From: a virus
Lineage: Duplodnaviria; Heunggongvirae; Uroviricota; Caudoviricetes
Virus record (IMG/VR): IMGVR_UViG_2541047120_000010
DNA: 5,673 bases
Reading direction: 5' to 3' (one strand)
A program made the position numbers and the translations under genes. Of this stretch, positions 2,307 to 2,607 are shown in pieces; the first letter of the stretch is position 1, and each line of letters starts with the position of its first letter. The notes beneath the pieces were generated by a model. The model was not told the DNA's origin and did not search any database. It saw nothing but the letters and a program-made list of their open reading frames with translations.

Positions 2307-2479
2307 TGCAAAAGCATTCAGCACAATGTCCAACTCCCCAGTCCGACATTGATGCTGTTTAACCAGAGCCTCCAAAAGGAGCCCTTGTTAAGGTACACAA
2401 TATTTGCGATGTAACCTTAGCGCGTCTGGTACATTTTTTCAAGCGGTTGTAGGGCTGCCGCCAATATGAGAAAACACAG

Positions 2480-2602
2480 ATGTCTACATACAATTTGAAT
2501 GACCAATTCGATCGAGAAGTTCATGTGAATGCCTATGAACGGATAAGGCATGGAAATCTTGAACATGTGTGTGAGCATTATCGCTCAAGGCCACACCGCT
2601 AA
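2480..2602 (+). CDS. Possible small protein (40 aa, His/Cys/Arg-rich) ending 6 nt before the intrinsic terminator
   Basis: ATG 2480 to TAA 2600-2602: MSTYNLNDQFDREVHVNAYERIRHGNLEHVCEHYRSRPHR. Weak SD (gagaaaa). The only plus-strand ORF in the 300-nt stretch between the 173-aa ORF and the terminator. Could be chance. Confidence 0.2.
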   Translation: MSTYNLNDQFDREVHVNAYERIRHGNLEHVCEHYRSRPHR

Positions 2603-2607
2603 TCATC

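Follow-up and report, generated by a model that had tools for sequence, protein, structure and literature searches.

What occupies the roughly 300 nucleotides (nt) between the stop codon of a 173-amino-acid (aa) open reading frame (ORF) and the terminator behind it in the immunity region of a Caudoviricetes virus: a small protein-coding gene or a structured 3' untranslated region (3'-UTR)? We investigated this question in a 5,673-nt stretch of DNA (IMG/VR record IMGVR_UViG_2541047120_000010; hereafter the window, to which all coordinates refer). The original prediction, made from the letters alone, had placed the stop of the 173-aa ORF at 2306, a 40-codon ORF with an HVCEHY motif at 2480-2602 as the only plus-strand ORF ahead of the terminator, and the terminator about 300 nt beyond 2306. 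All three were confirmed, the second for ORFs of sizeable length, with a terminator-like hairpin and T-run at 2608-2636; the gap between the stop codon of the small ORF and the terminator stem is 5 nt, and not 6 nt as first given. We read the locus as a two-gene, insulated 'moron' (1655-2636) in which the 173-aa gene is followed by a structured leader, a real 40-codon gene, and a terminator, and which may follow a toxin-antidote-like logic with a masked ribosome-binding site (RBS). We assign this reading a probability of about 0.5.

Positions 1600-2700 are 100% identical to the cI-N immunity region of many Shiga toxin (Stx)-converting phages (VT2-Sakai/Sp5, Nil2, and Stx2 II), and this region was found in 234 of 5426 complete E. 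coli genomes, O157:H7 for the most part. The gene map was taken from the VT2-Sakai annotation and converted to window coordinates (Table 1). In VT2-Sakai, the 40-codon ORF is already deposited as the hypothetical protein H0092, and RefSeq/PGAP makes no call there. The tags ECs1182 and ECs1183 have since been removed from the Sakai chromosome; H0092 is probably the former ECs1183.

The 40-codon ORF and its protein family

Divergent homologues of the small ORF were gathered from Salmonella phage Oslo, Pseudescherichia vulneris (where the module sits after the Q antiterminator), a metagenome contig with a different cI/cro pair, L102 (with a partner protein only 37% identical), and L107. The ORF was open in 6/6 contexts (Sakai, L107, Oslo, P. 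vulneris, L007, and L102), with lengths of 40, 41, or 44 aa. All indels among them comprise whole codons (3-codon, in frame), and the frame-disrupting indels that had been named as evidence against a real protein were not found. Between divergent pairs, the ratio of non-synonymous to synonymous differences (pN/pS) was ~0.07-0.27 (pS 0.59-0.93, pN 0.10-0.21), and the differences cluster at third codon positions (7, 4, and 22 at the three positions for Sakai vs. P. vulneris). Over the gap-free 78-nt core of the ORF, this frame showed 129 synonymous vs. 19 non-synonymous codon differences. Each of the other five frames is interrupted by stops in several or all of the homologues, and change in frames +1, +2, -0, and -2 is almost purely non-synonymous. 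Since the frame is kept and the synonymous excess occurs in this frame only, we conclude that the 40-codon ORF, judged by its substitution pattern, is a real gene. The small protein thus passed the check proposed for it at the outset, namely conservation of the reading frame with synonymous set against non-synonymous changes. Text searches for ribosome-profiling or proteomic evidence of its translation returned nothing.

Minus-strand ORFs have been deposited here instead by others (AP005153, FJ184280, and NC_049945; 53 aa at 2417-2578 and 88-97 aa over 2484-2777), and the 53-aa frame is open in several homologues. The chance that these are the true genes is practically nil, as the proposal is already contradicted by stop codons in some or all homologues for all three minus frames. 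The open-looking frames change nearly exclusively at non-synonymous sites (139/148 codon differences in frame -0 and 140/142 in frame -2), and frame -1, with 67 synonymous vs. 73 non-synonymous differences, nevertheless has one to three stops in every homologue. Moreover, an open minus frame mirrors the conserved plus-strand gene. Because the minus frames fail the substitution test and carry stops, we regard the minus-strand annotations as spurious.

A profile search of 1.84 billion representative proteins yielded 95 relatives of the small protein at E <= 1e-3, and a second search yielded 175 clusters. The taxa include Haemophilus influenzae, Pseudomonas aeruginosa, Rahnella, Bradyrhizobium, and uncultured Caudoviricetes, and all members are annotated as 'hypothetical'. 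They are ~32-60 aa long and share the consensus KxVHVxAYxRxRFGRLEHVCEHxRSxP; V14, R21, E28, V30, H33, and R35 are invariant across 62 members, and six further residues are nearly so. No match was found in Pfam, NCBIfam, or PADLOC, and the only PHROG match was 21154 (function unknown). On these profile matches, we consider the family to be widespread and unnamed. AlphaFold2 predicted a four-stranded beta meander with a predicted local distance difference test (pLDDT) score of 88-96 in the core, for which Foldseek and hidden Markov model (HMM) searches against the PDB returned no significant structural or sequence neighbor. The basic tail described earlier is present (RSRPHR), but it is the only basic part of a near-neutral protein (isoelectric point, pI, 7.0; 6 His and 1 Cys). 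The protein is strongly hydrophilic, with a grand average of hydropathy (GRAVY) of -1.40 and a maximum 11-residue hydropathy of -0.62, and contains no membrane segment.

The family also bears on the proposal that the ORF is untranslated and that the whole 300 nt represent a structured 3'-UTR or a 3'-derived small RNA (sRNA). The Shine-Dalgarno (SD) sequence of the ORF (GAGA) is weak, a PGAP/RefSeq call is missing, and prophage-encoded sRNAs are known in strain Sakai (PMC4104026). Nevertheless, we consider this proposal very improbable and already contradicted: the synonymous sites are near saturation and the protein core is almost invariant, in this frame alone, and homologous proteins exist in distant taxa. 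No EcOnc sRNA was found in the interval by text search, and no Rfam match was obtained; likewise, no sRNA located between cI and N turned up when the main texts of Tree et al. 2014 and of a 2026 preprint on the Pas sRNA were searched. The original prediction, which was largely correct in what it observed, had offered a real small protein and a structured 3'-UTR as alternatives, and each holds for a different part of the region: the ORF is coding, and the 173 nt upstream of it are a conserved structured RNA.

Distant members of the family were observed in mobile or defense-type neighborhoods (L108, L113, L236, L239, L242, and L243). These hold XRE and an ImmA-like peptidase beside Q in a Haemophilus prophage, MazE-PIN and SLFN/AlbA_2, SMC/AAA_13 with HEPN, BrxR with a Mu-type transposase, an mnmE-mnmG island with RhuM, and IS1595 with Xre-RES. 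A long uncalled leader lies upstream of the small ORF in each, and a terminator-like hairpin follows within ~50 nt in most. We found no homology between the upstream proteins at these distant loci (the Haemophilus ImmA-like protein and a 148-aa protein in L113) and the 173-aa protein.

The structured leader and the ribosome-binding site

The 173-nt spacer between the two genes is conserved as DNA, in no reading frame, and occurs in two variants, alpha (this window) and beta. Minimum-free-energy (MFE) predictions, made independently for individual sequences, agree on one architecture: a hairpin H1, a helix P2 that encloses a short element and P3, a single-stranded, U-rich linker containing (A/U)UCAAG, a hairpin P4, and then the SD sequence and AUG. 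H1 starts 12 nt downstream of the stop codon in the window, and the central domain (P2 with its enclosed elements) recurs in 8/10 alpha leaders. P2 undergoes compensatory replacement, reading ACCAGAGC/GCGUCUGGU in Sakai, GCUGCAGCC/GGUUGCAGU in P. vulneris, AAGCUGUAACC/GGUUACAGUUU in L071, and CCCUGACC/GGUUAUGGG in L102. Among the alpha leaders, P3 is 89% paired and P4 98% paired, with 3/5 P4 pairs changed on both sides in addition to G.U pairs.

Covariation was tested on 23 beta sequences aligned with plain MAFFT and, for alpha, on only 10 sequences and the helices H1, P3, and P4; as controls, the pairing partner was slid by 1-3 columns and the alignment was shuffled 500 times. In the beta leader, 93% of the cells form a standard pair (vs. 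32-45% with a slid partner) and 15 pairs are changed on both sides (vs. 4-7). The corresponding values for the alpha leader are 94% (vs. 23-52%) and 5 pairs (vs. 0-2). The covariation score was reached by 0/500 shuffles in either variant. We therefore rate the covariation support as strong for the beta variant and moderate for the alpha variant of the window. The frequent G.U pairs indicate that the structure belongs to the plus-strand RNA. From these comparisons, we conclude that the 173 nt before the ORF is a conserved structured mRNA leader.

A search of Rfam 15 returned nothing at E <= 1 for the window, and the leaders of 10 other loci were likewise without a match. A covariance model of the beta leader (R1) does not detect alpha leaders, and consequently the two variants share an architecture only; their homology is not proven. 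A pattern scan of viral contigs for further alpha leaders returned mostly chance matches, and the three confirmed by a downstream small ORF were already in our set. We also dropped, on inspection, a reading of GTTTAAC...GTTAAGG as an integron attC-like site, as it is not conserved in P. vulneris or L062. A link between the TCAAG of the leader and a promoter palindrome was rejected as well; the palindrome TCAAGaCTTGA occurs only in Sakai and Oslo.

The apical segment of H1 (2332-2346) is reverse-complemented between lineages (CAACTCCCCAGTCC in Sakai vs. AGACTGGGGAGTTG in Oslo; likewise in L102, L071, and L097), and H1 of the beta type flips in the same way (TTTGGCGA vs. TCGCCAAA). Such flips suggest either recurrent inversion mediated by the palindrome or a symmetric site in the DNA. 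The spacer could accordingly act mainly as DNA. In that case, a dimeric DNA-binding protein, the 173-aa protein for instance, would use H1 and other inverted repeats as operators, or these repeats would be a recombination 'linker' that shuffles lambdoid modules. Flipping of the apical part while the arms stay unchanged is what a symmetric DNA site or palindrome would show; furthermore, the leader region is a mosaic with breakpoints at ~2356, 2395, and 2458, and the 173-aa protein has an integrase-type core-binding-like domain. We nonetheless judge a mainly DNA-level role to be unlikely. The nested long-range helices P2, P2b, and P3 show compensatory changes typical of RNA, the many G.U pairs would be C.A on the other strand, and the architecture ends in a helix that involves the SD sequence of the next gene.

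This last helix is a predicted outer helix, P5, in which UUUUUUCA of the U-rich linker (2434-2441) pairs with UGAGAAAA (2467-2474) and thereby covers the SD sequence GAGA (2468-2471). MFE folds predict such an anti-SD helix in Sakai, Oslo, P. vulneris, L097, and several distant family members, and the equivalents differ in sequence (CUCAUU/AAUGAG in P. vulneris and AGUCUC/GAGACU in L097). The original prediction had called the RBS weak. GAGA is indeed a weak SD sequence; as it is predicted to pair with the linker, however, the weak RBS can be explained as a masked one. If the folds hold in vivo, P5 would mask the RBS of the small ORF.

Two smaller features proposed earlier did not exceed chance level. 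The hairpin AATGC-aaaa-GCATT is present and overlaps the TAA stop codon of the 173-aa ORF, but it is intact only in Sakai and L107, with GAATT, GAATA, GAACT, or a deletion at this site in the eight other alpha-type leaders examined. The operator-like stretch TACACAATATTTG lies at 2394-2406 and not at ~2386-2398, and its resemblance to the operator involves 3 mismatches in 11; the window contains 21 such matches vs. 13 +/- 3.6 by chance. This stretch falls in the apical loop of P3 and is unchanged in Oslo despite a different cI.

Module boundaries, exchangeable small ORFs, and the partner protein

Intrinsic terminators flank the module on both sides (Table 1). Ahead of the 173-aa gene, the left hairpin recurs with 90-92% conservation in five different contexts, namely Oslo, L062, Proteus L008, L073, and P. 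vulneris L006, in the last of which it follows the Q antiterminator. At the right terminator, the stem is kept in 6/6 type-A loci (defined below), while its loop and its distance from the stop codon vary. Because both terminators are conserved, we regard 1655-2636 as an insulated moron with its own promoter region. The module occurs between cI and N, after Q (P. vulneris), and elsewhere. Since the module has its own upstream terminator, it is unlikely to be just the tail of the cI transcript, and the terminator at 2608 need not belong to the pRM transcript, contrary to the suggestion in the Sakai annotation. The promoter region that follows the left hairpin (within 1655-1784) contains the palindromes CAAGACTTGAGTCTTG and TTGCATGCAA at 1712-1745; other loci have AAGACTnAGTCTT or CGATCG-type palindromes at the same place. 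These palindromes could be autoregulatory operators.

Table 1. Features of the cI-N region in window coordinates
Feature	Position	Strand	Description and basis
cro	298-513	minus	VT2-Sakai annotation
cI	630-1283		VT2-Sakai annotation
Left intrinsic-terminator hairpin	1655-1684	+	AAAGGUCGCAGAGGUGCGGCCUUUUUU; free energy (dG) -18.3
H0093 (ECs_1184 in the Sakai chromosome), 173 aa	1785-2306	+	Acidic upstream partner protein; PHROG 2602, function unknown; VT2-Sakai annotation
AATGC-aaaa-GCATT mini-hairpin over stop codon	2305-2318	+	Not conserved
Leader hairpin H1	2319-2357	+	CAGCACAAUGUC...GACAUUGAUGCUG, 12+3 bp; present in 10/10 alpha leaders, 96% of cells paired
Leader central domain	2362-2430	+	P2 (2362-2369/2422-2430) around P2a (2370-2373/2378-2381) and P3 (2387-2398/2408-2421)
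Hairpin P4 (2443-2450/2454-2461) within outer helix P5	2434-2474	+	Covariation (P4), MFE folds (P5)
H0092, 40 aa	2480-2602	+	Protein-coding gene, type-A small protein; frame conservation and substitution pattern; VT2-Sakai annotation
Right intrinsic terminator	2608-2636	+	Stem AACCCGGC/GCCGGGTT, 8 bp with 6 G-C pairs; T-run TTTTCTTTT; dG -14.3; VT2-Sakai annotation
OL/pL	2770-2845		VT2-Sakai annotation
N	3035-3307		VT2-Sakai annotation

Using the 173-aa protein family as bait, we collected ~42 distinct downstream regions whose partners range in identity from 100% to 33%. A small ORF begins ~147-174 nt past the stop codon of the partner in ~40 of these regions; L067/L033, with a type-A ORF that is truncated, and L106, which lacks a small ORF, depart from this pattern. 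Three types of small ORF were distinguished: type A, the family of the window itself; type B (~47 aa), with a zinc-ribbon-like CxxC...CxC pattern; and type C (~57 aa), which is very basic and belongs to PHROG 33859. A by-eye alignment of EVHVNAYERIRNGN with EVIFRPYIVDKNGK had suggested homology among the types, which failed in hhalign (probabilities <1%). Leader variants and ORF types mix as a mosaic (alpha+A, alpha+B, beta+B, and beta+C). Among the 234 E. coli genomes, no small ORF was found without its 173-aa partner, and both parts co-occur exactly. An apparently partnerless small ORF on the plasmid pNJS001-2 (L247) proved to be an insertion sequence (IS) insertion in a decaying prophage. 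This E. coli plasmid of 439 kb carries a prophage fragment in which an IS3-family element has entered the leader between the central domain and P4 (at the equivalent of ~2438), so that the small ORF is cut off from its 173-aa partner gene.

The 173-aa protein (pI 4.9) had no Pfam match above threshold and no NCBIfam or PADLOC match; a weak, sub-threshold match to Phage_int_SAM_1 covers residues 12-93. The AlphaFold2 model comprises a confident four-helix N-domain, a disordered acidic linker, and a beta-beta-alpha C-domain of ~45 residues. Weak Foldseek matches to the N-terminal domains of integrases suggest that the N-domain resembles core-binding (SAM-like) domains, and nothing significant was found against the PDB by Foldseek or HMM searches. 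We discarded the idea of a tyrosine recombinase, as only the SAM-like N-domain matches, below threshold, and the C-terminus is a small beta-beta-alpha fold and not a catalytic domain.

Additional observations concern the 3' end of the 173-aa gene. In its final 21 codons, identical codons are used in 65% of the cells with the same residue, compared with 35-49% in the rest of the gene. Near the end of the gene lies an inverted repeat, GCCGAACG (2260-2267) / CGTTCGGC (2291-2298). A T-to-C variant of it, which leaves A.C on the plus strand but G.U on the minus strand, is found in other loci, and a minus-strand promoter-like site is present at 2332..2303. Codon conservation, repeat, and promoter-like site could together reflect a short antisense RNA. 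In the IMG/VR contig L107 (941-2445), the 173-aa gene is replaced by ORFs of 192 aa and 309 aa; the 192-aa protein matches the PADLOC candidate defense protein PDC-M63A (E 2e-10).

Two features outside the module were noted. The 83-aa ORF H0090/ECs1180 (3366-3617) lies directly downstream of N and has no Pfam match. At 3793-4761, the window encodes a 322-aa Glu/Ala/Lys/Arg-rich, coiled-coil-like protein, also without a Pfam match, where VT2-Sakai has the unrelated 122-aa Ea10; the window thus comes from a mosaic relative of Sakai and not from Sp5 itself.

Function of the module and comparison with known systems

What might this module do? Mondal et al. 2016 (PMC5155283) constructed in-frame deletions of Sp5 genes and did not obtain a deletion of ECs1184, which 'appears to be lethal'; their gene set lacked the 40-codon ORF. 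As ECs1184 could not be deleted in the Sp5 lysogen, an addiction or toxin-antidote-like logic is the most likely explanation, which this result suggests but does not prove. We propose that 2307-2636 consists, in this order, of the 173-nt structured leader, the 40-codon gene, and the intrinsic terminator, and that P5 masks the GAGA SD sequence, so that synthesis of the small protein would stay low or await a trigger. Under this proposal, the small protein may be a harmful effector, and the acidic 173-aa protein, with its integrase-type N-terminal nucleic-acid-binding domain, may keep it silent or neutralized. The comparisons above establish the coding status, the family, the conservation and covariation of the leader, and the modular architecture; masking in vivo, toxicity, antidote role, and mechanism are inferred. 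The occurrence of distant small-protein members in defense or toxin-antitoxin-rich islands is consistent with this proposal, as are the acidic character and disordered linker of the 173-aa protein and the borderline enrichment of ECs1184 among RNA-associated proteins (false discovery rate 0.065) in a 2025 NAR study (PMC7618764).

Several points weigh against it. P5 comes from energy predictions and has no common register across loci. Neither protein has a match among the toxin and antitoxin families of PADLOC, Pfam, or NCBIfam, and the small protein, being hydrophilic and near-neutral, differs from classical type I toxins. The C-domain of the 173-aa protein shows no covariation with the small-protein type that follows it, and this speaks against neutralization through simple protein-protein contact. 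ECs1180 was the only other Sp5 gene that resisted deletion, and the authors proposed a role in lysogeny maintenance, not a toxin-antitoxin system (PMC5155283). In the polynucleotide kinase (PNK) assay of the 2025 study (PMC7618764), ECs1184 was 'not a strong RBP' (RNA-binding protein). Finally, distant small-protein members have unrelated upstream genes, and in L107, where the partner gene has been replaced, the leader and small ORF persist together with 19 codons from the 3' end of the 173-aa gene.

The last of these observations would also fit an arrangement in which the leader and the small gene are an autonomous small moron beside the 173-aa gene, encoding a non-toxic nucleic-acid-binding regulator or an anti-defense or exclusion factor; ECs1184 would then be undeletable for another cause, e.g., the lysogeny maintenance preferred by the authors of PMC5155283. 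Members next to unrelated neighbors in Haemophilus, Rahnella, Pseudomonas, and metagenomic islands, each with a long leader and a terminator right after the ORF, speak for such autonomy, as does the leader and small ORF in L107 without a 173-aa gene. We regard it as possible but rather doubtful. Nearly all members of the 173-aa family, down to 33% identity, precede a leader and a small ORF at a fixed distance, which argues for a functional link, and the exact co-occurrence in the 234 complete E. coli genomes points in the same direction.

A more specific form of the toxin-antidote proposal is that the leader represents a new class of cis-acting RNA and the target of the 173-aa protein, which would hold the SD-masked state or bind H1 and thereby silence any of three interchangeable toxic small proteins. 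We consider this improbable as it stands. If true, it would be a protein-on-mRNA antitoxin mechanism and would account for the mix-and-match small ORFs as well as for the undeletable ECs1184 in the Stx2 prophage.

With type II toxin-antitoxin operons, the module shares the two-gene order and an acidic upstream protein (pI 4.9) in which a disordered linker connects an N-domain of nucleic-acid-binding type to a small C-domain. The reportedly undeletable upstream gene, the mobility on prophages, and the palindromes in the promoter region are also alike. It differs in having a 173-nt structured spacer instead of overlap or coupling, in a candidate 'toxin' that is only 40 aa long, near-neutral, and from a family without known function, and in the exchange of three unrelated small proteins behind one partner family. 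Type I toxin mRNAs (hok/sok, tisB/istR, and zorO/orzO) carry a very small, often-missed ORF behind a long structured 5' leader that occludes the RBS. The small, often-missed ORF, the long structured leader, the prophage or island location, and the terminator right after the ORF are found here as well, whereas the small protein is a hydrophilic (GRAVY -1.4), conserved beta mini-protein and not a membrane helix. As a counterpart to the antisense RNA of type I systems, the locus offers only the speculative minus-strand signal at 2260-2332.

Lambdoid phages express cargo genes between cI and N in the lysogen, such as rexAB in lambda, nun in HK022, and stk in 933W. The module occupies the same slot with the same insulated layout of terminator, promoter region, genes, and terminator, although its proteins have no sequence relationship to Rex, Nun, or Stk. 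In line with the moron concept (Juhala et al. 2000, as cited in PMC4104026), it is also found in the other classic site after Q (P. vulneris), and in L107 the slot holds the candidate defense gene PDC-M63A. The predicted pairing of a U-rich strand with a purine-rich SD sequence in a hairpin just upstream of the start codon further resembles control by leader structure in other systems. Phage genes controlled by leader structure include Mu com-mom and the lambda cIII thermosensor, and SD masking of the fourU type belongs to the same group. With H1 and its nested central domain, the leader described here far exceeds these in size, and it lacks an Rfam 15 match; Rfam Lambda_thermo was detected elsewhere in L073.

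The ORF itself had been deposited earlier and left uncharacterized. The new elements are the support for a real gene from a widespread family, its structured leader, the architecture with interchangeable ORFs, and the link to the published lethal-deletion result. Three aspects deserve attention: an unnamed, widespread family of ~40-aa proteins in prophages and defense islands, a structured leader absent from Rfam, and an unusual modular layout that lets three unrelated mini-proteins replace one another behind one partner gene. The module lies in the immunity region of the Shiga toxin phages carried by E. coli O157:H7, beside a gene that a systematic study failed to delete. A harmful small protein would account for this failure and would uncover an addiction or exclusion module stabilizing Stx prophages.

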